A stretch of DNA of 64,000 nt from an uncultured Actinomycetes bacterium (lineage in GTDB: Bacteria; Actinomycetota; Thermoleophilia; Gaiellales; JAICJC01), in assembly GCA_963796875.1 (NCBI GenBank), contig CAWCNL010000004.1, forward strand, positions 203,397-267,396. Direction: 5' to 3'. The translations under genes and the position numbers were made by a program. The notes beneath the pieces are model-generated. The model had not been told where the DNA came from. It ran no database searches and saw nothing but the letters and a program-made list of their open reading frames with translations. Of the stretch, positions 1 to 55,913 are shown piece after piece (positions within the stretch are counted from its first letter, which is position 1; every line of letters begins with the position of its first letter).

Positions 1-1407
1 GGCGAGGTCGCCCAGCGCGGTGAGCCGCAGGCGGCGATGCCGGTTCTCGGCCGCGCAGGTGTAGAGGAACAGCTCGCGCGCCTCGGGCTGCAGCGCCGCG
101 ATCCGCACCGCCAGCGTGGCGACGTCTGACTGCGTGACCGACCGCGCCGCGACCACCGCCCACGCGCGCTGCTCGTCGAGGGCGAGCTTGGAGGCATCGA
201 CCAGCTTCCACTGCTGGGCGATCACGTTGATGCGCCGCTCCGGATCGTCCGAGACGGGCACGATCCACGAGTCTTCCTTGATGATCGGCTTGGCGGGCTT
301 GCGCCGCCGGCGACGGCGGCTGGGCGGGGGCGTGACCAGTCCACCGGGCCGGTAGGCATCCACGCCCAGCAGCGAGTGCAGCGTGACGGTGCGCTCGGTG
401 TGCGGCGCGCCGGCCTCGGCGAAGTCCACGACGATGCCCGACTCCTTACGGCGGTGCAGGCGCATGATGCGGCCCACCCGCTGCTGATAGATGCGCCGGC
501 TGGCGGTCGGCGCCAGGTGCATGCAGACGGTGGCCCGCGGAGCGTTCCAGCCCTCGGCCAGGATCTGGGCATTGACCAGCACGTCGATCTGACCACGGTC
601 GTAGGCGGCCAGCGTCTCGGCCAGTTCGCGCGGCGGGGTGCGGCCCGAGACGGCCGCGGCGCGCATCCCGATGGCGCGCATGGCCGCGGCCACGCGCCCG
701 GCGTGTTCCACGCCGGCCGCATAGACGATGCCGGGGGTATCGCCAAAACGGCTCTGGTAGAGGTCGGCGGCGGCCAGGTTGAGCGGGTCGAGGTCGAGCG
801 CGGCGGCCAGCTGGCTCTGGTCGAAGTCGCCGCCGACGATGTCGACGTTGCGCACCGACGCGATCGGCTTGATGCGGATGCAGCGCAGCGGCGAGACCAC
901 GCCGCGGCGCACCGCCTCGCCCAGCGGGAAATCGGCCACCTCGGCCGGGAACACGTCGGCCACATGCTTTTGCAGCAGCTGGTCGGTGGCGGTCATGCCG
1001 ATGTAGAGCGGCTCGTTGTATGCGCGGATGGCGGCGGCGGTCTTCTCGCCGAGCGCCGTGTGCGCCTCGTCGCAGACGACCACCGTGTAGACGTCGCGGC
1101 GCAGGTCGGCCGAGTGCTTGATGAACCACGAGTAGGTGTTGATGGTCAGCGGCGGCACATCGGGCACCGGATCGCCGCGCATGATCGGCGGTGACAGCCG
1201 GTCGCGGTATCCCTCGGTGCCCAGGTCGCGCGTGAACTGGTCGACGAGCAGGCGCCGATGGGTAAGGATCAGGATGCCGGTCGAACGCCCCGCCTCGACG
1301 AATCCCGCGGCGGCGATCGTCTTGCCCGAAGCGGTGGGATGCTTGAACCGGTAGCGGCGGCTGGCGCCGGGGTCGGGCGGGGCGGCGTCGGCGGCTCGCC
1401 TCGTCAT
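1..1407 (-). CDS. SF2 DEAD/DEAH-box (type III res-subunit-like) helicase core, partial; runs off the left edge
   Basis: Own minus-strand translation (not in the ORF track because no stop lies in the window): MTRRAADAAPPDPGASRRYRFKHPTASGKT (Walker A at 1318-1341), VVVCDEAH (DEAH box), IGMTATD, QRVGRIMR (motif VI). Confidence 0.85.
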   Translation of the reverse strand, partial: MTRRAADAAPPDPGASRRYRFKHPTASGKTIAAAGFVEAGRSTGILILTHRRLLVDQFTRDLGTEGYRDRLSPPIMRGDPVPDVPPLTINTYSWFIKHSADLRRDVYTVVVCDEAHTALGEKTAAAIRAYNEPLYIGMTATDQLLQKHVADVFPAEVADFPLGEAVRRGVVSPLRCIRIKPIASVRNVDIVGGDFDQSQLAAALDLDPLNLAAADLYQSRFGDTPGIVYAAGVEHAGRVAAAMRAIGMRAAAVSGRTPPRELAETLAAYDRGQIDVLVNAQILAEGWNAPRATVCMHLAPTASRRIYQQRVGRIMRLHRRKESGIVVDFAEAGAPHTERTVTLHSLLGVDAYRPGGLVTPPPSRRRRRRKPAKPIIKEDSWIVPVSDDPERRINVIAQQWKLVDASKLALDEQRAWAVVAARSVTQSDVATLAVRIAALQPEARELFLYTCAAENRHRRLRLTALGDLA

Positions 1408-2015
1408 CGATCTCGTCGACGCCGAGCAGGCTGGGGTCGGCGCTGGCCACCGGATCTGGCGGGTCGTGCGACGGCGGATTCGGAGTCGTCGTCGTCCTCG
1501 TCGTACTCCTCGGTCTCGTCATCGTCGTCTTCTGGGTCGTACGCCGACTCCTCAGACTCGAGCACGATCTCGCCGAGTTCGGCGGTGTCGTCGTCGTCAT
1601 CCTCGTCGCCGTTGGTGCTCTCGTCCGGCTCGACCACGCGCTGCAGGTCGCCGATCAGTGCCGCGAGCTGTCCGGCCAGCGCGTCGACCTGGTGGCGGCG
1701 CAGCGTGGTGCCCGAAGCGAGCTTGGGCTGAGACTCCGACAGCACCCGCTCGAGGCCGAGCACCAGCGAGAAGTCGCGCGACCATTCGAAGCTGGGGTAC
1801 AGCGCCCCGCGGTCGATCTCGGCGAGCGCCGCGTCCAGCGCAGCGCGGCGCACGGTACCCGTCGCCAATGCATCGGCGGGGTCCTCGCCTTCGTGCAGAA
1901 ACGGCTCGCCACACCAAGCAGCTGCTGAGTGCGCGGCCGCTTCAAGGTCAGCCTCGAAGCGTAAAGTCATGTGGTCTGGTGGCTGCGGGCTTTCAGGGCG
2001 CCAAAACGGCGACAC
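1404..2015 (-). CDS. Helicase N-terminal module (RRHQ motif plus long poly-acidic insert). Separate frame, ATGA overlap with the helicase core
   Basis: ORF track 203 aa: TLRRHQVDALAGQLAAL, then a D/E-rich tract (DEDDDDDTAE...DDDDETEEYDEDDDD). Its stop TGA (1406-1404) overlaps the ATG (1407-1405) of the core ORF. A likelier internal start is the ATG at 1970. Confidence 0.5.
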   Translation of the reverse strand: MSPFWRPESPQPPDHMTLRFEADLEAAAHSAAAWCGEPFLHEGEDPADALATGTVRRAALDAALAEIDRGALYPSFEWSRDFSLVLGLERVLSESQPKLASGTTLRRHQVDALAGQLAALIGDLQRVVEPDESTNGDEDDDDDTAELGEIVLESEESAYDPEDDDDETEEYDEDDDDSESAVARPARSGGQRRPQPARRRRDR

Positions 2016-2057: not shown

Positions 2058-2848
2058 TTACATGAGCGCCGAGCGCACGAGCGCGCCCAGCGGCCGTGCG
2101 AGGCCGGGTGTCGAGGCGAACACGCCGCCGTCACCGGAATCGTCGATCGGGTCGAGCCGTTCGACCACCCCTCCGGCCTCTGTCACGAGTAATTCACCGG
2201 CAGCACGGTCCCAGATCTTGAGGGGGACTTCGTAGTAGGCGTCGATGCGGCCTGCCGCAACCCAGGCCAGATCGAGGGCGGCCGATCCGCCGCGGCGTAC
2301 GTCGCGCACGCGCGCGAGGAGTTCAGCGGTGGCCCGGCCCTGACGCACGCGAGGCTCCGGCGCATAGGATATCCGGTGGCCAGGAGCGCCCACTCGGGAC
2401 GATCCTCGGCGCCGTGACCGAGATCGGCTGCGCCGTTCAGAGTGGCGCCGGCGCCGCGGCCGGCGGCGAACAGCTCGTCGCGGGTGGGGTCGTACACCAC
2501 GCCCACCATCCAGCCCTCGTCGTCCTGCACGGCGATCGACACCGCCCAGGCCGGATAGCCGTAGAGGTAGTTGGTGGTGCCGTCCAGCGGATCGATCACC
2601 CAGCGCAGACCCGAACCGCCGGCGGTGCCTCCCCCCTCCTCGCCCAGGATCGCATCGTTGGGCCGCTCGCGCGCAAGCGTGGCGCGCAGCAGCGCCTCGG
2701 CGTCGCGGTCGGCGTCGGACACCAGGTCGATCGCCGTCGATTTGGTGTCGACGCCGCGGGCCGGGCCGCCGAAGCGCTCGAGCAGCAGGGCGCCCGCATC
2801 GCGCGCCATTTCGACGGCGAGGGGCAGCAGGCTTTCCGGCACAGACAC
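2058..2848 (-). pseudogene. Inositol monophosphatase family protein (SuhB/ImpA-like), frame break near 2385
   Basis: The N-terminal two-thirds lie in the tail of ORF 2183..3790 ([22 protein letters not shown]). The C-terminus lies in ORF 2058..2393 ([20 protein letters not shown]). The join ...LLATG / SYAPEPR needs a 1-nt shift. GTG starts at 2848/2842. Confidence 0.85.
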
Positions 2849-6870: not shown

Positions 6871-8081
6871 GGCCGCGTATTGTCACACGAACGTGGCAGA
6901 CATCGATCCACACAGGTTCTGGGGCTGGTTCGACCAGCTCGCCGAGATCGGCCGCACCGACACGGGCTGGAACCGCGTCGCGTGGACGCCGCTCGAGGCC
7001 GAGGCGCGCACGTGGTTCACCGCCGCGGCCGAGGAGATCGGCCTGGAGGTGCGGCGCGACGGCGCCGGCACGCTCTGGGCGGTCACCCCCGATGCCGACG
7101 AGGGCCCGTGGGTATGCGCCGGGTCGCACCTGGACACCCAGCCCAACGGCGGTGCCTACGACGGCGCGCTGGGCGTGGTCAGCGCACTCGAAGCCGCTGC
7201 GGCGCTGCTCGACTCCGGCGTGAAGCGGCGCCACCCGCTGGCGGTCGTGTCGTTCGTGGACGAGGAGGGTGCCCGCTTTCGGGTGGCCTGCTTTGCGAGC
7301 CTCGCGATCACCGGCGGGCTCGACATCGACCACGTACTCGAGGCGATGGGCGACGCACCCCAGATCTACGACGTGACCGCCGAGTCGCTGCGCGCCGCGC
7401 CCGCGCAGCTCGCCCGCGTGCGCTCGATGCTGGAGGTGCACGTCGAGCAGGGTGTGAGCCTGGTCGAGCGCGACCTGGCGGTGGGAATCGCCACGGTGCT
7501 CACCCCCCGGCAGCGGTGGAAGGTCGAGTTCTTCGGCGCCGCCAACCACGCCGGCACGACGATGATGCCGGGCCGCCGCGACGCCCTGGTGGCCGCCGCG
7601 CCGTTCGTGCTGGAGGTCGACCGGGTGGCCCGCGCCCACCCCGGTGCGGTCGGCACGGTCGGCAAGGTCGAGGTCGTGCCGGGCTCGACCAACTCGATTC
7701 CCGGCCATGTGACGGTCTCGCTCGACGTGCGCGCACCCGAGCTCGCCACCGTCGAGGAGATGGTGGACACGCTGCGCGACCGGTTCGGCGAGGCGCACGT
7801 TCTCGCTCGAGGCGCGCAACGACGGCGCGACGTTCGATCCCGTCCTGCGCGCGATGCTCTCCGAGGCGGCGCAGCGGCGCGGGATCGCCGCCGGCGACCT
7901 GCCCTCGTATGCGGGCCACGATTCGGGCATCCTCGCGCCGCATGTGCCTGCGGCGATGGTGTTCGTCCGCAACCCGACCGGCGCGAGCCACACGCCGGAG
8001 GAGTCCGCCGAGCGGGAGGACTGCGAGGCCGGCGTGCAGGTGCTGACCGACGCGCTCGAGGCCGCGCTGACAACCAGTTGA
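6869..8081 (+). pseudogene. M20-family amidase (allantoate amidohydrolase / N-carbamoyl-L-amino-acid hydrolase type), frame break near 7797
   Basis: ORF 6848..8095 is good up to ...RDRFGEAHV. The true C-terminus is in ORF 7854..8081 (YAGHDSGILAPHVPAAMVFVRNPTGASHTPEE). The bridging frame reads FSLEARNDGATFDPVLRAMLSEAA. Confidence 0.85.
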
Positions 8082-33991: not shown

Positions 33992-33992
33992 G

Positions 33993-36716: not shown

Positions 36717-36732
36717 TTGCCCGGCTCCTTGG

Positions 36733-38471: not shown

Positions 38472-38508
38472 GTCCAAGCACCCAGAGGTCGTAACGGAGC
38501 ATTACCCC

Positions 38509-38575: not shown

Positions 38576-38696
38576 AACTCAGCCAGCGGCCCGCCTCTCC
38601 ATCTACCTCCTTTGCAAACTCGGCGGGGGAAGGCTGTTGGAGGGGGTTCCTGAGGTGCAAGTCGTAACGCGTCGACCAGCCGGTCAGTGGTGGCGG

Positions 38697-42062: not shown

Positions 42063-42230
42063 GACCCCGAGCGTACCTTGCCACCTGCGATCTGAACAAC
42101 CAATCGGGTCGTGCTTTGCTCTTTTGGGCGGTAGCCTGCATCGGCGTGTGGAAGCTGGGCAAGTGGATCCCCTGAGAGCCTCGGTACGTAGGTCAGAATC
42201 GCTGAGTGTGGCTGCGTTGCAGTGTCCGAT

Positions 42231-43883: not shown

Positions 43884-43996
43884 CGGCCAAGCGTATACAG
43901 GGACGCGACTCTCCCGCCCGAGCAGCCGCTGAGTGCCCGCGTGCTGCCTGAGGGTGGGCCTAGAGATCGGCGAGGCGGGCGGGGTCGCTAGCTCCT

Positions 43997-46900
43997 ATGA
44001 TTGGCGATTCAGTGATCTGCCCGAACTGCTCAACGATTGCCGAGGGCGCGAAGTTCTGCCCTGAATGTGGAACCGCGATGGGCGTAACGCCTGTGTCGGA
44101 GCGCCGCGAACGGCGCGTCGTCTCGGTGCTGTTCGCCGATCTGGTCGGTTTCACCAGTCGGTCGGAGCGACTGGACGTCGAGGATGTCGAGGGCTTCCTG
44201 CAGCCGTACTTCCAACTGCTCGAAGCTGCAGTCCAGAGCACCGGGGGCGTGGTGGCGAAGTTCACTGGTGATGGCGTGATGGCGATGTTCGGTGCCGACG
44301 TTGCGCATGAGGACGATCCCGAACGGGCGGTGAGAGCCGGACTCGCGATATGCGAGGGAATCGCTGATCTGGATGACGGTGTTCTTAATGTGCGGGTCGG
44401 CGTCACGACTGGAGAGGTTCTGGTCACCCATGACGCACACGGACGCATGGATGCCGTCGGTGATGTTGCGAACACGGCCGCCAGGCTGGAATCGGCGGCA
44501 CCGGTCGGCCGCATGCTGGTCGATACCCACACGTACCGCTCGACAGAACTGGCGATTCTTTACGACCAAAGCGACGGTGTCGTCGCTAAGGGCAAGTCCG
44601 GCAAGATCGAGGCTTGGATAGCCGTCCAGGCGCGATCAATCGTGCCGGAGCAGACGAGGGCGTCCGATCTGCCGCTGGTTGGGCGCGAGGCGGAGTGCGT
44701 CATGCTGCGCGGAGCACTTGACCGCAGCCTTCGAGATCCGGCTACGCAGCTGATCACCGTGGTCGGACCACCGGGTATCGGCAAAAGCAGACTCGTCGAA
44801 GACCTGGGCGATTATGTTGAGGACGTCCAGGAGCTGATCACCTGGCGCCGCGGCCGCTCACTCTCGTACGGCGAGGGGATCGCCTTCTGGGCGCTGGGAG
44901 AGATGATCAAGTTGCAGGCCGGGATTCTCGAGTCCGACGATGGCCAGGTTGCCGACGAAAAGTTGAGGGTGGCGGTGGTGAATCTGATCGTCGTCGACGA
45001 GGGTGATCGGGATTGGGTGATCCGCCACTTGAGACCGCTGGTAGGGTTGGATCGCACGGTCTCGGCCGAGGCGAATACTGCTGAGGCGTTCGCCGCCTGG
45101 CGGCGGTTCTTCGAGGCGATGGCCGAGGAAGGGCCGACGGTGCTCGTGTTCGAGGACATCCACTGGGCCGACGATGCGCTGCTCGATTTCATCGACCTGC
45201 TAGTCAGCCGTGCTGGTGCCGTGCCGCTGCTGATCGTGTGCACCGCCCGGCCAGAGCTCTTTGAACGTCGACCGGCCTGGGGAGGCGGCAAGCCCAACGC
45301 GAGCACGATTTCGTTGACGGCGCTGAGTGGCGAGGACACGGCACGACTGGTCGCCGAACTGCTTAATCAGGCGTTGCTTCCAGTGGATGTCCAGCAGGCG
45401 CTGCTTGATCGGGCGGGTGGAAACCCGTTGTACGCGCAGGAGTATGTTCGTATGCTGCAAGACCGGGCTCTCCTGCGACGGGGGGAAGCCGGCTGGAGCC
45501 TCGAGGGCGAGATCGACGGCCTGCCCGAGTCTGTTCACGGAATCATCGCCGCCCGCCTGGACACCCTGTCACACGACGAGAAACAACTGATCCACGACGC
45601 AGCCGTGATGGGCCGAACCGCGTGGCTCGGGGCCGTGTGTGCGCTCACGCCCCGCCCATCCGCCAGTGCAGATGATCTACTCCACGCGCTGGAACAAAAA
45701 CAGCTCGTCCAGCGGGTACGCCGGCCGACGATCACTGGAGAGACCGAGTTTCGGTTCGCCCACGCGCTCACCGTCGAAGTCGCCTACGCACAGATCCGTC
45801 GAGCCGACCGCGCTCAAAAACACGAGGCCGCAGCGGCGTGGATCGAGCGACTGGCCGAAGGGCGGGAGGACAAAGCAGAGCTGCTCGCTCACCACTACGC
45901 AACTGCGCTCGAGCTGCGCCGCCAGATAGGTGAAACTCCCGACGACCTGCTCAGGCGTGCGGCAAGCGCCCTAGCAGAAGCCGGGCGCCAATCGGCTGCT
46001 CTGAACGCGTACACTCGCGCTGTCGGGTATTTCGACGCCGCACTCGACGCCCTCCCCGACGACGACCCAACACGGGCAGATCTGCTCTATGACCGTGCCG
46101 TGGCCCAGTCGCGTGGCGGCGCGGTCACTGACGCCGAACTCGACCAGGCGCTCGAGGCGCAGTTGGCCGCTCAGTGCTGGGAGGGAGCCGCCCGGGTGGA
46201 GGTATTGATCGCGCATCGCGCCACGCGAGAGGACGGTGACCTCAAACGTGGACTCGATCACCTTGATAATGCGAGTCGCTACGCGCAGCGCGTGCCCTAC
46301 TCGCACACCGCCAGTGAGGTCGCCCACACACGGCTGCGCGCGCTCCTCAGTGAAGTGGGTAACGAGCACGACCTGGTCGGGTTAGCGCGAGAGGGGCTTC
46401 AACGTGCCGAGGCTGCAGGCGACGAGGTGGGTGCGGCGTTGCTGCTGTCCGACCTCGCCGACGCACGGTTCGAAGCCGGCGATCTCGACGGGATCGACGA
46501 CGCTGAGAAGTCGGCCGACATGCTCGACCGGCTGTCCGACCGGGCCGCCGCAAACGCTTACAACTCGCTCGCGTGGAACTATTTCAACGTCGGTCGGCTG
46601 GATGATTCGCTGGCCGCGCTGGGCCGGGCGCGCGACTGGGCCGGACGCATGGGAGAGCCGTACTTGCTTGCGCAGGTTGAAGGAAGCGGCGCAGAAATCA
46701 ATTATTACGCCGGTTCGTGGCAGTCCGCCAGGATTATCACGGAGCGCTATCTCGATGATCCAGCTCGATTTCATGCCATGGCGGCACGCAACATCCGCGG
46801 GCGACTCGCGCTCGCCGCCGGTGACATGGACACCGCGCGCGCAGACGCGAACGACAACATCGAGTTCGGTGAGTCGGCTGACAACCACGAGTTCCTCTGT

Positions 46901-47353
46901 CCCGGTCTGGCGCTGCTCGCCGCGACCGAGCGAGTCGCCGGTGATCGTGCGGCGTCAGAGCGCGCGATCACGCGCTACCTCGAAGCGTGGCATGCTGCCG
47001 GCGGGTCGACACCCCCGACCCTCGCCGAGGTGGCGCTCGTCCAAATCGGGGACGGTTCCAACGACGCTATTATTGGTGCGGCGCTGATCCTCGACGAACG
47101 GGTTCACTGGCGGGCGCCAATACTGGCACTCGCGCACGGCCACTACGAAGAAGCCGTGCGGATGTTCGAGGTAATCGGCTCGTCGCCGTTAACGGCCGAG
47201 GCCGATTTCCGCGCTGCTACGCGAGCCCGTGCCGTGGGTGATGATCACTCCGCCCGACACCACGCGCGTGCCGCGCGCACATTCGCGGAGCGTGTTGGGG
47301 CAGGTCGGATGCTGGTTGAACTCGACGCTCTCCAACGGTCGGAAACGGCATAG
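43997..47353 (+). CDS. Zinc-ribbon / class III cyclase / STAND ATPase / TPR protein, paralog B (1118 aa)
   Basis: CPNCS..CPECG, FADLVGFT, KFTGDGVMAMFG, GDVANTAARLE, GPPGIGKSRLV, VLVFEDIHWADDALLDF. Shares WRRGRSL-YGEGIAFWALGEMIKLQAGILESD with paralog A. Confidence 0.9.
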   Translation: MIGDSVICPNCSTIAEGAKFCPECGTAMGVTPVSERRERRVVSVLFADLVGFTSRSERLDVEDVEGFLQPYFQLLEAAVQSTGGVVAKFTGDGVMAMFGADVAHEDDPERAVRAGLAICEGIADLDDGVLNVRVGVTTGEVLVTHDAHGRMDAVGDVANTAARLESAAPVGRMLVDTHTYRSTELAILYDQSDGVVAKGKSGKIEAWIAVQARSIVPEQTRASDLPLVGREAECVMLRGALDRSLRDPATQLITVVGPPGIGKSRLVEDLGDYVEDVQELITWRRGRSLSYGEGIAFWALGEMIKLQAGILESDDGQVADEKLRVAVVNLIVVDEGDRDWVIRHLRPLVGLDRTVSAEANTAEAFAAWRRFFEAMAEEGPTVLVFEDIHWADDALLDFIDLLVSRAGAVPLLIVCTARPELFERRPAWGGGKPNASTISLTALSGEDTARLVAELLNQALLPVDVQQALLDRAGGNPLYAQEYVRMLQDRALLRRGEAGWSLEGEIDGLPESVHGIIAARLDTLSHDEKQLIHDAAVMGRTAWLGAVCALTPRPSASADDLLHALEQKQLVQRVRRPTITGETEFRFAHALTVEVAYAQIRRADRAQKHEAAAAWIERLAEGREDKAELLAHHYATALELRRQIGETPDDLLRRAASALAEAGRQSAALNAYTRAVGYFDAALDALPDDDPTRADLLYDRAVAQSRGGAVTDAELDQALEAQLAAQCWEGAARVEVLIAHRATREDGDLKRGLDHLDNASRYAQRVPYSHTASEVAHTRLRALLSEVGNEHDLVGLAREGLQRAEAAGDEVGAALLLSDLADARFEAGDLDGIDDAEKSADMLDRLSDRAAANAYNSLAWNYFNVGRLDDSLAALGRARDWAGRMGEPYLLAQVEGSGAEINYYAGSWQSARIITERYLDDPARFHAMAARNIRGRLALAAGDMDTARADANDNIEFGESADNHEFLCPGLALLAATERVAGDRAASERAITRYLEAWHAAGGSTPPTLAEVALVQIGDGSNDAIIGAALILDERVHWRAPILALAHGHYEEAVRMFEVIGSSPLTAEADFRAATRARAVGDDHSARHHARAARTFAERVGAGRMLVELDALQRSETA

Positions 47354-47389
47354 AGCGTTGACTGCACGACCGGTGAGCTAACGTGCGCG

Positions 47390-47414
47390 ACCCCGGGGTG
47401 GACCGCTCCGGGGT
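47390..47414 (+). terminator. GC hairpin after paralog B (ACCCCGG-N11-CCGGGGT); no clear T-tract
   Basis: Read directly 37 nt after the stop. Confidence 0.3.
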
Positions 47415-47480
47415 GAGAATGGATGATCGCCAGACCCGTGGCACGTCGCGACGAGGGGTCGGATCAGCTTCGGGGTCTGA

Positions 47481-47666
47481 CGACCTTCCAACTCTACGAG
47501 GCTGATCGTACACACACACACACAGAACACCCAAGAAAATGTTGCACTGCCACAAGGCCGCTATACCATCACGATCAACGGCGGCAGCGGCGGATGGCGG
47601 ATCGTCGTGAAGGCTGGGGCGACGGTAACGAAGACACTCAACGTGGTCGTATTCCCGTTCGGGTAG
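47481..47666 (+). pseudogene. Start-less C-terminal remnant of a PEGA/CarboxypepD_reg-like beta-sandwich protein containing a (CA)7 microsatellite
   Basis: Own translation: ...HTHTHTQNTQENVALPQGRYTITINGGSGGWRIVVKAGATVTKTLNVVVFPFG*. No standard start codon in frame. CA repeat at about 47509-47523. Confidence 0.35.
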
Positions 47667-47670
47667 GAAA

Positions 47671-47805
47671 CGCCGCCACCCCCGAATCACCTGGAACGCC
47701 CGGTCAACGCTCGGCCATCGCCTGTCACCGCCCCCGAACCAGCCGGGACGCCAGGTCAACGCTCGGGCCATCGCCTGTCACCGCCCCCCGAACCAGCCGC
47801 AACAC
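47671..47805 (-). repeat. R49 repeat, three tandem copies in reverse orientation (first truncated)
   Basis: gtcaacgctcggccatcgcctgtcaccgcccccgaaccagccgggacgcc and gtcaacgctcgggccatcgcctgtcaccgccccccgaaccagccgcaacac. Confidence 0.9.
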
Positions 47806-47846
47806 CCGGGCCACCCCAGCACCGCCACACCGATTCGATTCGGTGA

Positions 47847-48344
47847 CTATCCCGCCGAGTTGAAGTGGCTCGTGCCGAATGAGACCGATGTCTTCGGTAC
47901 GCCCCAGGGACAACGCGATGGGGTCACTGCCACCGTACCCGAGTCAGTGCCCGGTTCCGTCGCCTGAACGATCTTCCACACCAGGTGGTGAACGCCCTTG
48001 CCGCCGACCACCCACCGTTGACCCGGCTGAAGCGTCCTCTTCGACGGTGTGCCTCCGTTGATCGCGACCGACACAACCTCCGTCGCTGTGTTCGGATCGG
48101 CGAGGAACGCCGAGGCGAAACCCTTGGGCGGCACGCATTTGGTAGACACCGTCCCGAGGCTTCTCAACGAGACCAGCGGAATCCACGCACTGATCTTGAT
48201 CACTGGCGCGGTTGACGTCACTGGAACCGCCGACGTGCTGCTGCCCGAAGACGAGCTCGGAACCGTGGTAGTCACGGTTGCGGTGGTGGCGCCTGCACAA
48301 CCGGCGACAACGCACGAGATGAGGACGATCGGGATGAGTCTCAT
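47847..48344 (-). CDS. Lipoprotein, hypothetical (165 aa)
   Basis: MRLIPIVLISCVVAGCAGATT lipobox, then a Thr/Ser-rich linker. A small hairpin CACCGA-N6-TCGGTG sits just downstream (about 47820-47837). Confidence 0.65.
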   Translation of the reverse strand: MRLIPIVLISCVVAGCAGATTATVTTTVPSSSSGSSTSAVPVTSTAPVIKISAWIPLVSLRSLGTVSTKCVPPKGFASAFLADPNTATEVVSVAINGGTPSKRTLQPGQRWVVGGKGVHHLVWKIVQATEPGTDSGTVAVTPSRCPWGVPKTSVSFGTSHFNSAG

Positions 48345-48508
48345 ATGACCACTACGCGCTGAGCGGCCGTCTGCGTCTCGTCGCGCACTCGCCGCGTCGC
48401 CGTCTGCTGAGCTAATCGACATAGACTGAGAGTAGATCCGCAGAACGCCCCGGTTATTATTTTCGCCTCGGACGACGCGGCTGTCCGGCCCGAGCCGCAA
48501 CCCTCGGG

Positions 48509-48667
48509 CAAGGCTCAGCCTTCGCCTGCCACTGCCTCAGAACCAGCCGTAACACCAGGCCAAGCTTCAGCCATCACCCGCCACCGCCCCCGAACCAGCC
48601 GCAACGCCAGGTCAACGCCCAGCCGTCGCCCCGCGACCCACACCGGACACCGTCGGTCGGCAACACC
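48509..48667 (-). repeat. R49 repeat, three tandem copies in reverse orientation (third degenerate)
   Basis: caagcttcagccatcacccgccaccgcccccgaaccagccgcaacgcc is the best copy (48561-48608). Confidence 0.85.
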
Positions 48668-48854
48668 TGCCTCAAGGCTGGATCTCGGAATGTCGATGCC
48701 GATGCAGGCTGGACCGATCACCTACCGAAGGTATGGATCGTGGGTGGCTCACCGAGCCGGCAAGCGGAGGGACTGTGATCAGCGTGACGGGCGCGTCGGC
48801 CCAAATGGTCATCCGACCAGGGTCGAAGCCGATAGGCGTGGAAGGACGAGACAC

Positions 48855-49346
48855 TTGAGCGAGTCTTTGAGTGACACGACGGTTTATGTTCGCCTGCTCA
48901 ACGAAGATGTGGAGGTCTGGAGACCGGTCAGGGCAGAGCTGCTCGGTCGCGGGTGCTTCCGGATCAACCCGAGTGAGCCGTATGATCGAGACTTGGAGGA
49001 GTGGGAGTTCGCTCCCGGCCAAACGGTGTACGCTCGCCCAACGGCGCTCGCCGACGGTGAGGCACTCACGGCCGTCTCCCCGGCTGATCCGTTCGCCATC
49101 GAGCTGAACGAGCTCACTGACCTATGCGGAACGCTTCTGACTGACGATGATCGCTGGGCTGCGCACCGATTGATCGATCACGGTGAGGGAGGCGAGGTCC
49201 TAACCGTGCTGGCAGCCGCGATCGCTCGTGCCCACCCTCGTGTCGAGCCCAATACCAAAATCGCTCGCTCGGAAGGTTCTCCGACGTGGAACGGGACTGG
49301 TACCAGACGGCGACTGGCCAGTCGGCTTTGTCGCCATCGCAAGTGA
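48855..49346 (+). CDS. Hypothetical small cytoplasmic protein (immunity-protein-like two-module layout)
   Basis: TTG 48855 after GGAAGGA. SESLSDTTVYVRLLNEDVEVWRPVRAELLGRGCFRINPSEPYDRDLEEWEFAPGQTVYAR. No family recognised with confidence. Confidence 0.5.
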   Translation: MSESLSDTTVYVRLLNEDVEVWRPVRAELLGRGCFRINPSEPYDRDLEEWEFAPGQTVYARPTALADGEALTAVSPADPFAIELNELTDLCGTLLTDDDRWAAHRLIDHGEGGEVLTVLAAAIARAHPRVEPNTKIARSEGSPTWNGTGTRRRLASRLCRHRK

Positions 49347-49357
49347 TTGACTGCTCA

Positions 49358-49409
49358 GGGCAACGCTCGGCCATCGGCTGCTACCGCCCCCCGAACTACC
49401 CGCGAGGCG
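49358..49409 (-). repeat. R49 repeat, single reverse-orientation copy
   Basis: gggcaacgctcggccatcggctgctaccgccccccgaactacccgcgaggcg. Confidence 0.8.
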
Positions 49410-49514
49410 ACCCTGCTTGCTACCCCCGCCGTGCGGATCACCACGCCCGGCGCTGGACGCTACTACCCTCGTAGCGTCTGGCGCAGGGCCTCACGATCTA
49501 CACGTCCAGGGTAG

Positions 49515-49829
49515 TTAGCCGCCAGCCGTCTGCCAGGTGAACGTTCGGCAAGTGACCGCCAACCGCTGGTCGCTCTCTTCCTCGTCCCAGTTGAGGAACT
49601 TGAACCGCCGCAGGGGCGGGACGTGCTCCTGCTCCGCCAGCGCGAAGAGCAGCATCCCTACTGGATCGTTGGATTCGATCGAGTCCACGCCCTCGAAACG
49701 ACACCGGAAGTGATCCCCTGCCGCCCCCTCAACATCCACATCAAGCGACTCGCCTGCAACTCGCACTGCGGTGATCCGGCCATCGTGAAAGCTCCAGTGA
49801 CCTGCGTATGACACAGTTCGTCCGCTCAT
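49515..49829 (-). CDS. Hypothetical small protein (104 aa)
   Basis: ORF track. Good codon bias. MSGRTVSYAGHWSFHDGRITAVRVAGESLDVDVEG... Confidence 0.55.
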   Translation of the reverse strand: MSGRTVSYAGHWSFHDGRITAVRVAGESLDVDVEGAAGDHFRCRFEGVDSIESNDPVGMLLFALAEQEHVPPLRRFKFLNWDEEESDQRLAVTCRTFTWQTAGG

Positions 49830-49922
49830 CAGTCAGGCTTGTATCGACACCGCGCCGACCGCCTTGAATCAAACGTGTTTCCGACAGGCCACGCTGCCCG
49901 ACCCTGGCTGAGGGTTGCCCGT

Positions 49923-50038
49923 CTGTTGCGGCTGGTTCGGGGGCGGTGGCAGGCGATGGCCGAACATTGAGCTGACGTTGTGGTCGGTTCGGGGGCGGTG
50001 GCAGGCGATGGTTCGACCGTGGCCTGACGTTGTCGGCT
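49923..50038 (+). repeat. R49 repeat, two tandem copies plus a partial third
   Basis: ctgttgcggctggttcgggggcggtggcaggcgatggccgaacattgagc; gacgttgtggtcggttcgggggcggtggcaggcgatggttcgaccgtggcc; gacgttgtcggct. Confidence 0.9.
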
Positions 50039-50041
50039 CAG

Positions 50042-50203
50042 TCAGAAGCTAGCGGCGACTTCGGCCAAGAGCTTCGAGATCACTTCGTCATCGAGCCCAG
50101 GCGGATCGAGCCGTACGTTCCAGGCGTACTGGAGAAGCGGGTCGTCTCCAGGTGTGTACTGCCAATCGATGATGATCTTGCCGCTTTGAGGCTGAGAATC
50201 CAT
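50042..50203 (-). CDS. Very small hypothetical protein (53 aa)
   Basis: MDSQPQSGKIIIDWQYTPGDDPLLQYAWNVRLDPPGLDDEVISKLLAEVAASF (tail of the spurious long ORF 50042..50806). Confidence 0.35.
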   Translation of the reverse strand: MDSQPQSGKIIIDWQYTPGDDPLLQYAWNVRLDPPGLDDEVISKLLAEVAASF

Positions 50204-50256
50204 CCACGCAGGGTATTCGGATTCGCGGACACCGTCGAGCGCTTCGAGATTTGACT

Positions 50257-50355
50257 GTGCATTGGGGCTGGTTCGAGGGGCGGTGGCAGGCGATCGGCCG
50301 AGCGTTGACCAGGCGTACCAGGCGGTGAGGGGCGGCGGCAGATGTCCATCGACGC
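50257..50355 (+). repeat. R49 repeat, one good and one degenerate copy
   Basis: gtgcattggggctggttcgaggggcggtggcaggcgatcggccgagcgttgacc, then aggcgtaccaggcggtgaggggcggcggcagatgtccatcgacg. Confidence 0.85.
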
Positions 50356-50417
50356 CTGCCTCCCACAGCTTGAGATCCGCCGACTCGGTGCCCAACGAAG
50401 AATGTAACCGTTGCCCT

Positions 50418-50466
50418 AAGTTGCGGCTGGTTCGGGGGCGTGGCAGGCGAGGGCCGAACCTGAGCC
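50418..50466 (+). repeat. R49 repeat, single copy
   Basis: aagttgcggctggttcgggggcgtggcaggcgagggccgaacctgagcc. Confidence 0.9.
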
Positions 50467-50508
50467 TAGGGTTGACTACGAGGTACCCGGCAATACGATG
50501 AGGGAGAT

Positions 50509-50640
50509 ATGACTGCCGGTGTACGTGCATTCGGGCGACGCTTCGTGAGCGACCAAGCCTTCCGGATGGCCGTGATCGGCGCGGTTGGCCTGGTCGCGTT
50601 CCTGTTTCTCGTCGTGAGCAGCGTGATCCAGAGCCTTTGA
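50509..50640 (+). CDS. Tiny single-TM protein (43 aa)
   Basis: AGGGAG RBS. MTAGVRAFGRRFVSDQAFRMAVIGAVGLVAFLFLVVSSVIQSL*. Confidence 0.4.
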   Translation: MTAGVRAFGRRFVSDQAFRMAVIGAVGLVAFLFLVVSSVIQSL

Positions 50641-50665
50641 TGGCACCGCGTCGAACGTTGAGGTG

Positions 50666-50713
50666 GTGTTGCGGCTGGTTCGGGGGCGGTGGCAGACCAG
50701 AGCCGCGGTGACG
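50666..50713 (+). repeat. R49 repeat, single copy
   Basis: gtgttgcggctggttcgggggcggtggcagaccagagccgcggtgacg. Confidence 0.9.
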
Positions 50714-50721
50714 ACCCGGCC

Positions 50722-50847
50722 CTAGCTTCGCCTGAGCGAACGGGCGGCCAGCGTAAGAACAACCGCGACGATCGCGACCAAGACCAGCAGGATCAGGACG
50801 ATCCACGCCTGGCTGGTCGAGATGGCGGTCAACATCAAAGGAAGCAT
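50722..50847 (-). CDS. Tiny single-TM protein (41 aa)
   Basis: MLPLMLTAISTSQAWIVLILLVLVAIVAVVLTLAARSLRRS*. Confidence 0.35.
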   Translation of the reverse strand: MLPLMLTAISTSQAWIVLILLVLVAIVAVVLTLAARSLRRS

Positions 50848-50882
50848 ACGCCGGGCCGACGGGGAGATCCAGCGTTGCCCTG

Positions 50883-50995
50883 GCGCGTTGCGGCTGTGTC
50901 GGGAGCGGCGGCGGATCGACACCGAGCGTTACGGTGGCGCGATGAAACAGGTCGGCGGCGGGTTCGGGGGCGGTGGCAGGCCGAAGCTGAACGTC
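50883..50995 (+). repeat. R49 repeat, two tandem diverged copies
   Basis: gcgcgttgcggctgtgtcgggagcggcggcggatcgacaccgagcgttacgg; caggtcggcggcgggttcgggggcggtggcaggccgaagctgaacgtc. Confidence 0.8.
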
Positions 50996-51034
50996 TCGGG
51001 GAACCAGGGCTGGAGCGGTAACGTCTAAGAGAGC

Positions 51035-51442
51035 GTGATGACACGGATCATCATCGCGATCTGCTTCGCCTTACTGTGTACAGTGGCCACGGTTGGCTGC
51101 GGCGGTGGAGGATCGCCGTGCACCGACTGCACGGCCCCAAGCGGAGCGACAGTAACGGGCACGGTGTTGGTGAGAACCCCGGCTGGTGGCGCGAAGCTCG
51201 TTCCACACGCCCGACTTCGAATCCACGGCTTCGCCAGCGGCACTAACCGCGCGATCAAAGCGCACTTCCGCACCGGCGATCACGGAGGATTCAGCTTTGG
51301 ACTGGGGCCCGGCCATTACACGCTGATCGCCATTACGGGGCGTCACGGTTCGCAAGCGAAAGAAACCTTCGCGGTCGCCGACTCTCTCGCGACTGTCCAT
51401 CTCCGAATTGTGGGCACAGTTCCGCCTACCACTGAGCTCTGA
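51035..51442 (+). CDS. Lipoprotein with CarboxypepD_reg/PEGA-like beta-sandwich
   Basis: MMTRIIIAICFALLCTVATVGCGGGG lipobox. GTVLVRTPAGG...GPGHYTLIAI. Confidence 0.6.
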   Translation: MMTRIIIAICFALLCTVATVGCGGGGSPCTDCTAPSGATVTGTVLVRTPAGGAKLVPHARLRIHGFASGTNRAIKAHFRTGDHGGFSFGLGPGHYTLIAITGRHGSQAKETFAVADSLATVHLRIVGTVPPTTEL

Positions 51443-51446
51443 TCTA

Positions 51447-51498
51447 GAGCGTTGCGGCTGGTTCGGGGGCGGTGGCAGGCGATGGCCGAGCGTCGACC
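51447..51498 (+). repeat. R49 repeat, near-consensus copy
   Basis: gagcgttgcggctggttcgggggcggtggcaggcgatggccgagcgtcgacc. Confidence 0.95.
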
Positions 51499-51521
51499 GG
51501 GTGTGTAGCTGGGTTCCCGTG

Positions 51522-51716
51522 CTACCAGGGACGCTGCCAGGAGCCGTCGCGCCGCAGGAACTGCAGGACAGGCACCGCCACGACCCCGATGGCGCAGACC
51601 TTGATCAGCAGCAGGATCGTGGTGCCGTGGCCGCCAGCGGTCACGTACCCCAGTACGTAGGCCAGTAGAAAGCCAACCAGTGACGCAGCGATCCGGAGTG
51701 CTCTGTCGATCTTCAC
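51522..51716 (-). CDS. Small two-TM membrane protein (64 aa)
   Basis: MKIDRALRIAASLVGFLLAYVLGYVTAGGHGTTILLLIKVCAIGVVAVPVLQF. Confidence 0.5.
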   Translation of the reverse strand: MKIDRALRIAASLVGFLLAYVLGYVTAGGHGTTILLLIKVCAIGVVAVPVLQFLRRDGSWQRPW

Positions 51717-52323: not shown

Positions 52324-52565
52324 GGTGTTCTGGTCTCCAGTCGGTCGGTCGGGCGATCGTCACCAGCGGGCATCGCCGGCTCCCTCGATTGCCTGCACAA
52401 CCATGATCGGCAGTCACTCGTGAATGACTTACCCCTGGATGAGCGTTGACTCCGGGCGAGCGGGGTCGCACCGATCTGTGTCGTCGCGGTCCGGCGGCGG
52501 CAAGTGCGTTCCGACTACCGAGACCTCTGCCGCGGACTCGAGAGTGACCTACGCGCTGGCGGCGA

Positions 52566-55500
52566 TCAGTTGCTCGGCTTCGCGCTGATAGGCAATAGCT
52601 CCGGTCCGGTCGGCAAAGCTGAGGACGGCTGCGACATGGTCGGCAGCGTCAGCTGGCCGGCCTTGCTCGGCGGCCTGGCGGGCGGCGAGGAGGTGGGCGT
52701 CTGCGGCGAGCGGATGGCTTCCGATTGTGGTGTAGCGTCTGCGGCTTCGGCGTAGCGCGCTTCGGCGGTGAGGAGGAGCGCCTCACGCCAGCGGACGATC
52801 TCGGGGAGCTGGAGCGCCGCATTGCGGATGTCATCGTGGCGGTTTGTCTCGGCGAGGATGGGAGCGATTTCGCACACGTGACATCACCGGGCACCTCCCG
52901 CGGTAGCGTTCTCGTTGAAGCGGGTGAGGAGGCGATCGCACGCGTCCACGCTGGCTTGATGATCGCCCAAGATGTGGGCGCAACGGGCTTGCAGCGCAAG
53001 GCCCATGTAGAGGAAGTCATCGTTCTCGGCGCCTTCGCTGTACAGAACGACGGCTGCGGCCGCCTCTGAAGCGCCGGTGGTGTCTCCCCGGCCAAGGTCG
53101 AGGTGCCGCACGACAAACCGCGATGTGGTGATAGTCGAAGGGGCTGGTGTCGGAGGAGGCAGCTAGTGCGAGGAGTTGGTCGGCGGTGTCCCAGTCGGCG
53201 AGGTGATACGCCTGGTAGGCGCGTTCGCTGGCGATCCAGGTCATGTATGACGGGAGGGCGAAGCTGCGTCGCCCACTCCGCGGCATTCGCAAAGGCAGCG
53301 TCTGCAGCGCTCAGATCGCCGAGGCCCTGCGACGTGTCTGCCAGGTTGCCATATGCGGCGGCGGTTCGTGGATGCGCGTGCTCGGCGAGCGTTTCTGCTG
53401 CTTCCTGCATGTCGGCCACACCGTCGTAGTCACCGAGGTCAACGCGGGCACAGCCGCGCCAGATCAGGAGCAGAGCTCGGCCGATCACCAAGCCGGCCTT
53501 CTCGGCCAGGGGGATCATGTGGTTGACCAGCGCGAGAGCCTCGGCTTGCTCGCCGTGGGAAACCATGCCGAACGCCTGGTCATACTGCGATCATGCACAT
53601 CGTGTCGCTAGGGGGTACCCGAGCGGCGTACTCCGCCGCCGCTCGTCAGGTGCAGTAGACCGCTCTCTCCGTCAGCTCCTGACTCCTGGTACCACCGGCC
53701 CAGCATCCGCTCGATCTGGGCGGCCGCGTCCCAATCCTCCACGGTGAGTTGGGCTCGAATCGCAGCTTCCAGGAGTTCGGGCGTTGCGGTCTCGCCGTCG
53801 AAGAGCGCGTTCGCATGGCCCAGCAGCAGCGCCGCTCGTTGCCGATCGTCCTGCGGCGGGGCGAGGGCCAGCGCTGCCTCGAAGTACCGTGCCGCTGCGA
53901 GATGGGCATGCGTCGCTGCTGCCTGGTTGGCAGCCTCGGTGAACGCGGCAAGCGCGCGTGGCGCGATTTCGTCGATCGGCTCTCCCATCGCCTCACGCAG
54001 CGACAGCGCCTGACTGTAGTGGTCTGCAAGCAGCTCAGCCTTGTCGTCGCGGCCCGCGGCGAGCTGTTCGATCCACCGTGCTGCGGCTTCGTGTTTCTGG
54101 GCTCGGTCGGCGCGGCGGATCTGGCTGTAGGCGACCTCTCGGGTGAGTGCGTGGCCGAACTGGAACTCGGTCTCGCCCTCGATCGAGCTGCGCCTGACCC
54201 GCTGCACGAGCTGTTTTCGCTCCAGGCGCGTGCAGTAGCTCTTCGGCTTGCCACGTGCTGCGTTCGGTGAGCGCGCAGACGGCGCCGATCCACGCAGTCT
54301 TGCCGACCACCGCGGCGTCTTGCAGTAGCGCCTTCTCCTCGGCCGAGAGCGTGTCGAGCCGCGCTGCGATGATGCCCTTGAGCGACTCGGGCAGGCCGCC
54401 GACGTCGCCGGTCAGCGTCCATCCACCGGCGCGCGTGAACAAGCACCCCGCGGTCCTGCAGCATCCGCACGTACTCCTGCACGTACAGCGGATTACCCCC
54501 CGCCTGGGCGAGCAGCGGCTGTTGCACCTCTGCGGGAAGCAGACCCTGGTCGAGCAGGCCGCCGACCAGCCGCGCGGTGTCTTCGTCGGAGAGCGGCGTG
54601 AGCGAGATCGTCGTTGCGTTCGTCTTGCCGCCGGCCCAGCCTGGCCGCCGCTCGAGGAGCTCTGGCCGTGCTGTGCATGCGATCAACAACGGTACGGCAC
54701 CGGCGCGATCGGCGACCAGGTCGATGAAATCCAGCAGCGCCGTCATCCGCCCAGTGGATATCCTCGAACACGAGCACCGTGGGGCCCTGCTCGGCCAACG
54801 CCTCGACGAACCTGCGCCACGCAGCGAACGCCTCTACCCGGCCGCCGTCGCCGCCGCTCGGCGCGGCATCCAGCCCGACCAGCGGACGCAGATGCCGCGC
54901 CAGCCAGACCCGATCGCGTTCGTCGAGCGTGACCGCCGCGACCGCCTCCGTGAGTTTCTGTTGCGCTACATCGGCAGAGTCGGACTCGAGGATTCCCGCC
55001 TGGGCTTTGACCATCTCACCCAGCGCCCAGAACGCGATCCCCTCTCCGTAGGAGAGCGACCGGCCCCGTCGCCATGTGATCAGTTCGGGGAGCTCGCTCC
55101 ACATGGGCGTAGAGCTCTTCCACCAGCCGCGACTTGCCGATTCCCGGCTCGCCGATCACCGAGACCAGCTGCGTGGATCGCTCCCGCCGCGATCGATCCA
55201 ACACCGCTCGCAACATGTCTGACTCGGCCTCGCGGCCTACCAACGGCAGCTGGTCGCGCTGCTGCTCGGGAACCACCGACACCGGATCCACCGCTACCCA
55301 CACAGCCACCGGCGTGGCCTTGCCTTTCGCGTCGACCGGCTCGGCCTCCGCGTAGCGAATAGCCCGGCTGGTGGCACTGATACGTCCACTCGTCCACCAG
55401 CACCCGGTCGGTCGGTGCGGCAGCCTCCAGCCGCGCCGCGGTGTTCACCACATCGCCGATCGCATCGGGATGCCCATCGGCGGGGAGCGTCATCAAAGCC

Positions 55501-55913
55501 TCCCCCGTCGTGATCCCAACCCGCACATGCAACCCCGTGCCCAGCCCGACCGACGCGCTCGCAGATGCGAGGCCACAGCGGACGGCTCGCTCCGGGATCG
55601 TCCTCGCGCGTTGTCGATCGCACCAAACAACGCCATCACGCCGTCGCCGGTGAACTTCGCCACCAACCCACCCGTGCGCTCGACCTCCTCTCGCAGGACC
55701 GCGAAATACGGATCGAGGAACCCCTCCACATCCTCGACATCCAAGCGTCTCAGACCGCCGCGTAAACCCGGCCAGGTCGGCAAACAGCATTGTGACGATT
55801 CGCCGCTCACGGCGCTCTGCCGCCGCGAGAGTCTCAAGCGGCGCGCCACAGGCCCCACAGAACCGGAACCCCTCAGGATTCTCCGTCCCACACTGCGAAC
55901 AGACCGGCATCAC
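52566..55913 (-). pseudogene. Third zinc-ribbon / cyclase / STAND / TPR paralog (C), decayed by many frame breaks
   Basis: N-terminus MMPVCSQCGTENPEGFRFCGACG...RIVTMLFADLAGFTRRSETL (ORF 55080..55913). Further pieces are scattered over ORFs 55493..55891, 55016..55309, 54493..55104, 53646..54746, 54035..54442, 53608..54207, 52649..53566 and 52566..52877, all colinear with paralog A. Confidence 0.85.

Follow-up and report, generated by a model that had tools for sequence, protein, structure and literature searches.

The window analysed here, a 64,000-nucleotide stretch of DNA from an uncultured Actinomycetes bacterium, raises the question of whether its clustered broken reading frames record genes in decay or an assembly of uneven quality. 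The sequence-only reading had counted about 15-17 breaks in the first 26 kb, none from 26223 to 52323 and many within a single gene further right (paralog C), and it had left the choice between uneven assembly quality, possibly with a chimeric contig, and pseudogenisation of older chromosomal genes next to a more recently acquired or selected block. We ran a codon-usage Viterbi model over the window to segment it, listed the same-strand frame switches, and tested each of them by Pfam or PDB matches on the repaired proteins and by DNA alignment against intact relatives (Table 1). The clustering proved to be real and far beyond chance (if breaks occurred as often as on the left, 19 kb of coding sequence would be free of them with a probability of ~6e-6), but the count for 1-26 kb is now 13 confirmed breaks plus one to two probable ones in a helicase linker. 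Model switches at 14492, 14965, 22007, 23067 and 23947 are ordinary gene boundaries or model noise.

Table 1. Positions of frame breaks and of the features that surround them in the window.
Feature	Position	Strand	Frame change	Remarks
Helicase (ResIII/Helicase_C)	1396..1466	-	one net -1 or two +1	probable; in acidic low-complexity linker
IMPase	~2348 (2330..2370)	-	-1	one Inositol_P match (residues 3-243) crosses junction at residue 164
M20 amidohydrolase	~7796 (7780..7812)	+	+1	Peptidase_M20 match (80-392) crosses junction at residue 304
OFeT_1/COG4280-like permease	~12679 (12660..12700)	-	+1	OFeT_1 match (152-260) crosses junction at residue 185
ArsB/CitMHS-like permease	~14068 (14050..14085)	+	+1	ArsB (71-415) and CitMHS (37-358) matches cross residue 277
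ClC channel	17458..17460	+	+1	extra G (GG -> GGG) between ...YGVG and YPVLE... codons
DUF302 gene	19327	-	+1	extra base (C on + strand, GGT[C]GGC); DNA alignment to L062, L064
ArsR gene	19725	+	+1	extra A (GTCG[A]TC); DNA alignment to L062, L064
MMPL transporter	19899 (G), 19951 (C), 20170 (G), 21285 (G)	+	all +1	DNA alignment to two intact relatives
Gene remnants	24367..25704	-		GMC oxidoreductase C-terminal 195 aa; 60-aa C-terminal fragment of oligopeptide ABC ATPase
Cassette	25705..29536			nuoB-like gene, ABC-2 permease, ABC ATPase, one further gene; common to many relatives
nuoB-like gene break	25981		-1	1-bp deletion (CCC -> CC)
Break-free block	26223..47353			ABC transporter, MFS genes, RNase P RNA, SBP, LexA, paralogs A and B, MFS-cNMP fusion
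RNase P RNA	33989-34332			
Cyclase paralog A	38697-42062	-		
Cyclase paralog B	43997-47353	+		
Gene-poor stretch	47333..51554			dense in ~52-nt repeat; flat GC1/2/3 in ORFs
Cyclase-AAA_16 paralog C	52549..55910	-		full length apart from indels; natural start and stop kept

Within the left segment, the breaks claimed for the IMPase, M20, COG4280-like, ArsB-like, ClC, DUF302, ArsR, GMC and nuoB-like genes are all borne out by Pfam, PDB or relative alignments, and the four claimed for the MMPL transporter are four single-base insertions relative to two intact relatives. The zone in which the M20 break may lie contains no run of four or more identical bases, and the break in the COG4280-like permease is masked in that its ORF (12222-13238) remains open in the wrong frame. 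For the ClC channel, tblastn with 67-68%-identical intact homologs changes frame at the tabulated position, where the DNA was read directly; the repaired protein shares 67% identity with its best homolog at 100% coverage and departs from homologs by conservative changes only. Alignments to PDB entry 1j3m (DUF302) and to Rv0081 and SmtB (ArsR) likewise cross the repaired junctions. Repaired MMPL shares 83% identity with 703-aa homologs at 100% coverage, and among 316 columns that 97% or more of the homologs conserve it shows a single deviation, which is also the median for the homologs. The helicase does change frame around the position first proposed (1404), and this break is graded probable, with one or two shifts; no homolog alignment reaches across the linker. 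Two claims found no support: the supposed break in an RCC1 signal at 8490 lies in an open ORF (8208-9629) encoding a plausible signal peptide, and a six-frame Pfam search gave no match for an isochorismatase remnant with at least two breaks. About half of the genes in 1-25981 are intact, with gene GC3 values of 0.84-0.95.

At the right-hand end of this segment, true gene decay is present, and it is limited to the truncated remnants listed in Table 1. The GMC fragment lacks the N-terminal domain and carries a -1 break at ~24605, with positions 1-91 and 60-139 of the GMC_oxred_C profile matched in two frames and positions 1-139 once the frames are joined; an oligo_HPY match identifies the second remnant as part of an oligopeptide ABC ATPase. 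Truncation holds for these two fragments only and not for the other broken genes. The adjoining cassette is 80-90% identical in nucleotide sequence to many MAG contigs with non-syntenic flanks, and in 58 loci retrieved with its ABC-2 permease these 3.8 kb are all that is shared with the window. Exact look-ups of the proteins of three intact ORFs gave no match in the collections searched, and no close relative of the region as a whole came to light, the best homologs being 67% (ClC), 83% (MMPL) and 86% (C) identical. Besides its single-base deletion, the nuoB-like gene has a 24-bp in-frame deletion.

To the right, re-annotation did not reveal comparable breaks. The testable genes of 26.2-47.3 kb contain none: Pfam matches are full length, the alignment of paralogs A and B runs from one end to the other, and comparison of the ABC genes with 19 relatives yields no frame-shifting indel. 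The claim of a clean region up to 52323 stands for this block, but not for 47.3-51.6 kb, which holds no recognisable genes; a six-frame Pfam search of 47.3-51.8 kb for genes or decayed genes found no match. The dispersed ~52-nt repeat that is dense there has a mildly unusual folding energy (z = -2.2) and occurs in none of 65 related loci. The comparison of composition that had been proposed for the left and middle segments reveals a step in GC3, from 0.886 in the left genes to 0.783 in the middle block.

Paralog C is indeed riddled with breaks, as had been stated. It carries 17-18 indels of a length not divisible by three between 52657 and 55747, namely 13 single-base insertions, one 2-bp insertion, two 1-bp deletions and one 5-bp deletion, all scored against an intact ortholog as well as against paralog A, and one extra insertion (52657) visible against the ortholog only. 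Once repaired, C can be aligned with A over its full length, its natural start and stop included, and its first 770 residues share 86% identity at 100% coverage with an intact protein (P0241). The dN/dS ratio between C and A is ~0.2, and relative-rate tests count 82 unique changes in C and 86 in A with B as the outgroup, and 20 and 38, respectively, with the homolog from the related locus L010 as the outgroup. Hence, the C lineage is not evolving faster and shows no excess of amino-acid change. Its one apparent stop is flanked by two insertions, one of 2 bp and one of 1 bp. The neighbouring ORFs are open, as claimed, but have no homologs with which they could be compared.

Considered jointly, the single-base events comprise 23 +1 shifts and five -1 shifts. 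Twenty of the 23 insertions are placed to the base by comparison with intact relatives, while those in the M20, OFeT_1 and ArsB genes are deduced only from which way the frame shifts. Some breaks had been thought to sit in G/C runs, but the window's 101 homopolymer runs of at least five bases contain no placed indel, the largest run context being GG -> GGG or CCC -> CC, and homopolymer slippage was rejected on this ground. Repaired reading frames contain no premature stop codon, and conserved-column and relative-rate tests detect no excess of substitutions in MMPL and C. A CpG arises at 14 of the 20 insertions placed to the base (p ~7e-5, for a pattern picked out post hoc). Comparison of the repaired flanks reveals no common motif, be it a recognition or a slippery sequence, and a nuclease-site hypothesis was rejected on this ground. 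Programmed frameshifting and transcriptional slippage, for which one conserved slippery site per gene and a shift common to orthologs would be expected, were rejected as well: up to 18 shifts fall in one gene, the sites have no slippery motif in common, and in the comparison with related genomes that the sequence-only reading had called for, the orthologs in L062, L064 and L065 keep to one frame throughout these sites. The bias towards insertions is by itself no proof of an artefact, since the departure of 23:5 from the natural ratio of 2.1:1 is not significant (p = 0.08).

Microflora Danica MAGs, to which the nearest relatives belong, were assembled from Nanopore reads only, using Flye in nano-hq mode and one round of Medaka (PMC12313526). 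Their conserved ABC genes contain singleton insertions outside homopolymers (L001 has one, L024 two). Over 13 kb, the 99.6%-identical assemblies L062 and L063 are told apart by four single-base indels, including a GG/G[C]G difference of a type common in the window. Stray insertions of the window's type thus also occur in Nanopore-only contigs of relatives. More generally, truncation by frameshifts is commoner in soil ONT assemblies than in HiFi assemblies (PMC13087279), and many annotated bacterial pseudogenes are coverage-dependent assembly artefacts (PMC11017572).

We consider it likely that the breaks stem from a long-read assembly, probably of a metagenome, whose consensus is locally poor. 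This corresponds to the first of the explanations initially offered, uneven quality of assembly or consensus, which the evidence favours: the lesions are indels only, biased towards insertions and located outside homopolymers, the repaired proteins are fully conserved and free of nonsense codons, and stray insertions of like type are seen in the relatives' Nanopore-only contigs. The errors, for the most part spurious single-base insertions, would have been left wherever local read support was poor; both the platform behind the window and the cause in depth or strains are inferred. Such poor support might arise, in order of decreasing plausibility, from low depth on strain-variable 'flexible' segments, from a mixed-strain read pile-up, or from incomplete polishing. 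The left 26 kb would then represent a moderately under-supported segment (~0.55 breaks per kb) and paralog C a very poorly supported one, its ~5 breaks per kb being close to the indel rate expected for a single modern nanopore read; in the organism itself the affected genes would be intact. Several observations count against this reading: (i) so extreme a cluster in the single gene C, with open ORFs adjoining it, is unusual for a purely depth-driven effect, (ii) the real remnants show that there is some true decay nearby, (iii) the insertion bias taken alone does not reject a natural origin, and (iv) the breaks affect accessory or redundant genes, among which true pseudogenes would be expected too.

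The strongest rival, though an unlikely one, is a genuine and recent pseudogenisation in which an accessory island (1-26 kb) and the redundant paralog C, both free of selection, accumulated real indels. Apart from the remnants, it is in keeping with the nature of the broken genes, which encode accessory transport and resistance functions or a third paralog, with the distinct GC3 of the left genes as expected for an island having its own history, and with the spectrum of spontaneous indels in high-GC actinobacteria, which is insertion-biased at 2.1 to 1 (PMC4938668). However, mutation-accumulation lines of the high-GC actinobacterium M. smegmatis yielded 856 base substitutions and 207 indels, with 79% of the indels in simple repeats (PMC4938668). 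At this natural ratio of about 4:1, some 30 indels should be accompanied by ~120 substitutions, a few of which would be stop codons, whereas neither nonsense codons nor a substitution excess is observed and no lesion lies in a homopolymer run. The 17-18 indels in C without faster amino-acid change are hard to obtain under neutral decay, multi-base deletions in the broken genes are confined to the 5-bp one in C and the in-frame one in the nuoB-like gene, and singleton lesions of like type are present in the relatives' Nanopore assemblies. Since almost all breaks are single extra bases in otherwise well-conserved genes, we regard dying genes as an unlikely explanation. The initial picture of older chromosomal genes decaying beside an acquired block is not favoured, and it is in part inverted: the clean block holds the core features LexA and RNase P RNA, while the broken genes are accessory.

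A chimeric contig, in which two organisms having the nuoB-like/ABC cassette in common were joined at ~25.7-29.5 kb and the left part was of low coverage and rich in errors, appears still less probable. The GC3 step at the junction keeps this option alive, a cassette so similar among many MAGs with non-syntenic flanks is a likely assembly trap, and at least 14 copies of the ~52-nt repeat occur in 37-61.5 kb as compared with none in 1-25 kb. Yet, the low GC3 of the middle block comes mainly from the cyclase paralogs (SBP and LexA have values of 0.85 and 0.81, respectively), and a chimera leaves paralog C unexplained. The option is further weakened by synteny: in the relative L059, ClC lies ~5.5 kb from RNase P RNA - SBP - LexA in the order and orientation seen here, and divergence from the window is alike on both sides (ClC 67% identical, LexA 68%). 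This linkage, together with the equal divergence, suggests that both sides belong to one lineage and that the linkage is ancestral. Least probable is a real, localised burst, in a soil actinobacterium, of non-templated single-base insertions with a CpG-creating preference in particular segments, conceivably through error-prone Ku/LigD end-joining (a pathway that is mutagenic in mycobacteria) of repeated double-strand breaks, by which a dozen accessory genes and one paralog would have been inactivated with no other mutational trace: the insertions are indeed single bases not due to slippage, and their creation of CpG is non-random, but no recognition motif is common to the sites, substitutions would have to be absent while the lesions built up, and like lesions separate the two near-identical Nanopore assemblies L062 and L063.

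The main value of our analysis is in quality control. If, as is most likely, we are dealing with consensus errors, some dozen genes and one large signalling protein would be wrongly annotated in this record as pseudogenes or split ORFs. The analysis also provides a practical way of distinguishing artefact and decay that needs no reads and combines (i) the ratio of indels to nonsense codons, (ii) the homopolymer context of the indels, and (iii) relative-rate and conserved-column tests on the repaired proteins. A possible signature of CpG-creating insertions (notably GG -> GCG) in high-GC long-read consensus sequences might also become a target for polishing tools. If the insertions were instead real, an unusual mutational process would be indicated.

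The window resembles chimeric metagenome joins at shared cassettes in that a step in composition meets a cassette found in many genomes, but it differs from them in that L059 keeps the left-hand ClC linked with RNase P RNA and LexA at equal divergence. Pseudogenes arising by reductive or neutral decay are known, for example, from Mycobacterium leprae and from recently host-restricted pathogens. As in such pseudogenes, frameshifts here hit accessory or redundant genes and truncated remnants lie nearby; unlike decay pseudogenes, the repaired frames carry neither in-frame stops nor excess substitution, and the indels avoid simple repeats, against the spectrum measured in an actinobacterium (PMC4938668). 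Close parallels exist with the residual indel errors of long-read assemblies, above all metagenomic ones of low coverage or mixed strains, even though the placed indels lie outside runs of at least five bases, insertions dominate, and many of these create CpG. Classic nanopore errors consist of wrong homopolymer lengths, a signature also of 454 and Ion Torrent data, and in these three respects the window departs from them. It agrees with long-read assembly errors in that single-base indels split genes whose proteins are otherwise fully conserved, nonsense codons are absent, and the density of breaks varies by region.

The frame breaks do occur in this sequence, and they are clustered. A seven-state Viterbi segmentation of the window, using a codon-usage model trained on long ORFs, finds that 1-26 kb holds many frame switches that stay on one strand and are not separated by non-coding DNA, that 26-47 kb shows nothing beyond ordinary gene boundaries, and that 52.5-55.7 kb has a dense run of minus-strand switches, a picture matching that of the sequence-only reading almost coordinate for coordinate. 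When segments were joined as repaired proteins and a single Pfam or PDB match spanning each junction was sought, the breaks previously called in the IMPase, M20, COG4280-like, ArsB, ClC, DUF302, ArsR and MMPL genes were borne out; with those in the GMC and nuoB-like genes, 13 breaks are confirmed in 1-26 kb, and one or two more are probable (see table). A further call in an RCC1 'signal' is unsupported because ORF 8208-9629 is open, and no support was found for an isochorismatase remnant. The Viterbi switches at 14492, 14965, 22007, 23067 and 23947 represent natural boundaries or noise.

ORF 12222-13238 (-) is open in a single frame end to end, yet by codon usage and the OFeT_1 match its true protein changes frame at ∼12679; the probable end is at 12410. 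Automated ORF calling would yield here a 338-aa protein that looks 'intact' and is nonsensical in part.

Frame breaks, indels of paralog C and other features of the window
Feature	Position	Strand	Remark
Helicase	1396-1466		frame change in acidic linker; one or two shifts
IMPase	∼2348		Pfam/PDB match spans junction of repaired protein
M20	∼7796		Pfam/PDB match spans junction of repaired protein
OFeT_1 gene	∼12679	-	Pfam/PDB match spans junction of repaired protein
ArsB/CitMHS	∼14068		Pfam/PDB match spans junction of repaired protein
ClC	∼17457		extra G at 17458-60; match spans junction
DUF302	19327		PDB 1j3m aligned over residues 15-134, across junction
ArsR	19725		match spans junction
MMPL (four breaks)	19899, 19951, 20170, 21285		matches span all four junctions
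GMC_oxred_C			profile positions 1-91 and 60-139 split between two frames
nuoB-like gene	25981		CCC -> CC deletion vs 90%-identical locus L001
Four-gene cassette	25705-29536		nuoB-like, ABC-2 permease, ABC ATPase, one further gene
Paralog A	38697-42062	-	∼1,110-1,120 aa
MFS transporter fused to cyclic-nucleotide-binding domain	42231-43883	-	between A and B
Paralog B	43997-47353	+	∼1,110-1,120 aa
Paralog C	52549-55910	-	∼1,110-1,120 aa
C, single-base insertions			n=13
C, further insertion			n=1; visible against ortholog alone
C, 2-bp insertion			n=1
C, 1-bp deletions			n=2
C, 5-bp deletion			n=1
∼52-nt repeat	37149-37269, 38512-38577, 47672-47817, 48476-48619, 49358-49391, 49909-50042, 50409-50443, 50652-50705, 50952-51017, 51435-51517, 56063-56113, 57931-58013, 60835-60866, 61319-61401, 61480-61513

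Between the two broken regions, 26.2-47.3 kb is free of breaks: Pfam matches are full length, the alignment of the cyclase paralogs A and B covers both completely, and comparison with 19 relatives shows no break in the ABC genes; were breaks as frequent here as on the left, 19 kb of coding sequence would contain none with P ∼6e-6. The earlier claim that all genes in 26-52 kb are intact thus holds by all tests up to 47.3 kb; 47.3-51.6 kb can be called neither clean nor broken since a six-frame Pfam search of 47333-51554 (4.2 kb) gave zero matches and this stretch offers no convincing genes to score. GC1/2/3 is flat across its ORFs, whose translations are rich in arginine; only a few small ones look real (49515-49829 (-); the lipoprotein-like 51035-51442 (+)).

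The same stretch is crowded with a GC-rich dispersed repeat of ∼52 nt (core GGTTCGGGGGCGGTGGCAGGCGATGGCCGAGC), with at least 14 copies that run in either orientation and are frequently paired in tandem, 52-55 nt apart. All copies lie within 37-61.5 kb, none in 1-25 kb, and none of the 65 related loci contains the repeat. Folding prediction sets it only mildly apart (z = -2.2), and it looks like a genome-specific element of the REP (repetitive extragenic palindromic) or MITE (miniature inverted-repeat transposable element) kind. Paralogs A, B and C share a zinc ribbon, an adenylate/guanylate cyclase domain, AAA_16 and a region of repeats; the MFS fusion sits between A and B, and the whole may constitute a cNMP signalling module.

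Comparison with intact relatives allowed lesions to be placed at base level. The ABM-DUF302/ArsR-MMPL cassette also occurs in two relatives (loci L062 and L064) at 77% nucleotide identity, and against both the window carries one extra base at each of the DUF302, ArsR and MMPL breaks, six in all. Paralog C, described earlier as riddled with breaks, indeed shows a series of indels when aligned to A and to its intact ortholog P0241 of locus L065 (86% protein identity over the first 770 repaired residues). Across the window, single-base shifts number 23 for +1 and 5 for -1. Twenty of the 23 insertions were placed to the base (17458, the six of the MMPL cassette, and 13 in 52877-55747), those in M20, OFeT_1 and ArsB being known from frame-shift direction only. 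The window has 101 homopolymer runs of at least 5 bases, and no placed event falls inside one; 14 of the 20 placed insertions create a CpG by putting C 5' of G, often GG -> GCG (chance expectation 27%, p ∼7e-5, for a pattern spotted post hoc).

A technical cause is the most probable one. Real pseudogenisation, the other option raised by the sequence-only reading, appears unlikely as the source of the breaks. Genuine decay is present at 24.4-25.7 kb: the GMC oxidoreductase there lacks an N-terminal domain and, of an oligopeptide ABC ATPase, a 60-aa tail is left, truncations that point errors cannot yield. The repaired reading frames contain no premature stop; an apparent stop in C sits between two compensating insertions. 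Repaired MMPL aligns along its entire length with intact 703-aa proteins at 83% identity and, of 316 columns that at least 97% of homologs conserve, deviates at only 1, equal to the homolog median; repaired ClC departs from consensus only conservatively. Repaired C keeps its natural start and stop, has dN/dS ∼0.2 against A (dS ∼1), and, when B is the outgroup, carries 82 unique changes vs 86 for A, or 20 vs 38 when the homolog from locus L010 is used instead. In M. smegmatis mutation-accumulation lines, 856 substitutions accompanied 207 indels, 79% of the latter in simple repeats (PMC4938668), so that 30 natural indels would be expected to lie mostly in runs and to bring over 100 substitutions plus a few stops. 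The insertion excess is not in itself diagnostic (p = 0.08), given that insertions naturally outnumber deletions 2.1 to 1 (PMC4938668).

A chimeric join as source of the unevenness is less probable still. GC3 is uniformly higher in the left genes (0.886 vs 0.783), the repeat is missing there, and the segment adjoins the cassette at 25705-29536, which many metagenome-assembled genomes (MAGs) share at 80-90% nucleotide identity; all three features would fit a chimeric join or a strain-variable island. However, in L059, a locus from a relative, ClC ... RNase P RNA - SBP - LexA keep this order and the two sides are equally diverged, which favours low or mixed read support on flexible segments of one genome, from which regional errors would follow. 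An exotic insertion process is the least probable.

The RNase P RNA, SBP and LexA genes are adjacent in the window and in L059 (regions compared: 33935-34293 and 17001-17846); ClC lies 15.6 kb and 5.5 kb upstream, respectively, which implies that the window has ∼10 kb of extra accessory DNA between them. Repeat copies at 51451 and 56063 flank C, which could be a strain-variable segment. The 25705-29536 cassette matches contigs labelled as several different actinobacterial groups at the identity stated and contigs labelled Chloroflexia at ∼65%, with non-syntenic flanks, suggesting horizontal spread or a very conserved module.

At ∼1 per 200 nt, the indels of C are nearly as dense as would be expected in a single raw modern nanopore read. 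The window itself is actinobacterial DNA (GC content 63-71%) whose gene content puts it with Gaiellales/Thermoleophilia-like soil bacteria, and its closest homologs and loci are almost all 'MFD' (Microflora Danica) MAG contigs, a few matches being labelled Gaiellaceae, Gaiella occulta or Solirubrobacteraceae. Conserved ABC genes of relatives carry singleton non-homopolymer insertions (one in L001, two in L024) and, in L004, one homopolymer deletion. In L024 (10001-11574), L001, L004, L048, L055 and L058, the ABC-2 permease copy either has a length not divisible by three or carries singleton 1-nt indels; in public long-read MAG contigs of this group, conserved genes are thus also broken by indels. 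Between L062 and L063, two assemblies of 99.6% identity, there are four single-base indels in 13 kb, of which two are non-homopolymer; one of these two is GG vs G[C]G (L062 position 3285). MFD long-read MAGs were built from Nanopore reads only, with Flye in nano-hq mode and one Medaka polish (PMC12313526); in soil assemblies, frameshift truncations are reportedly retained more in ONT than in HiFi data (PMC13087279), and many annotated bacterial pseudogenes are coverage-dependent assembly artefacts (PMC11017572).
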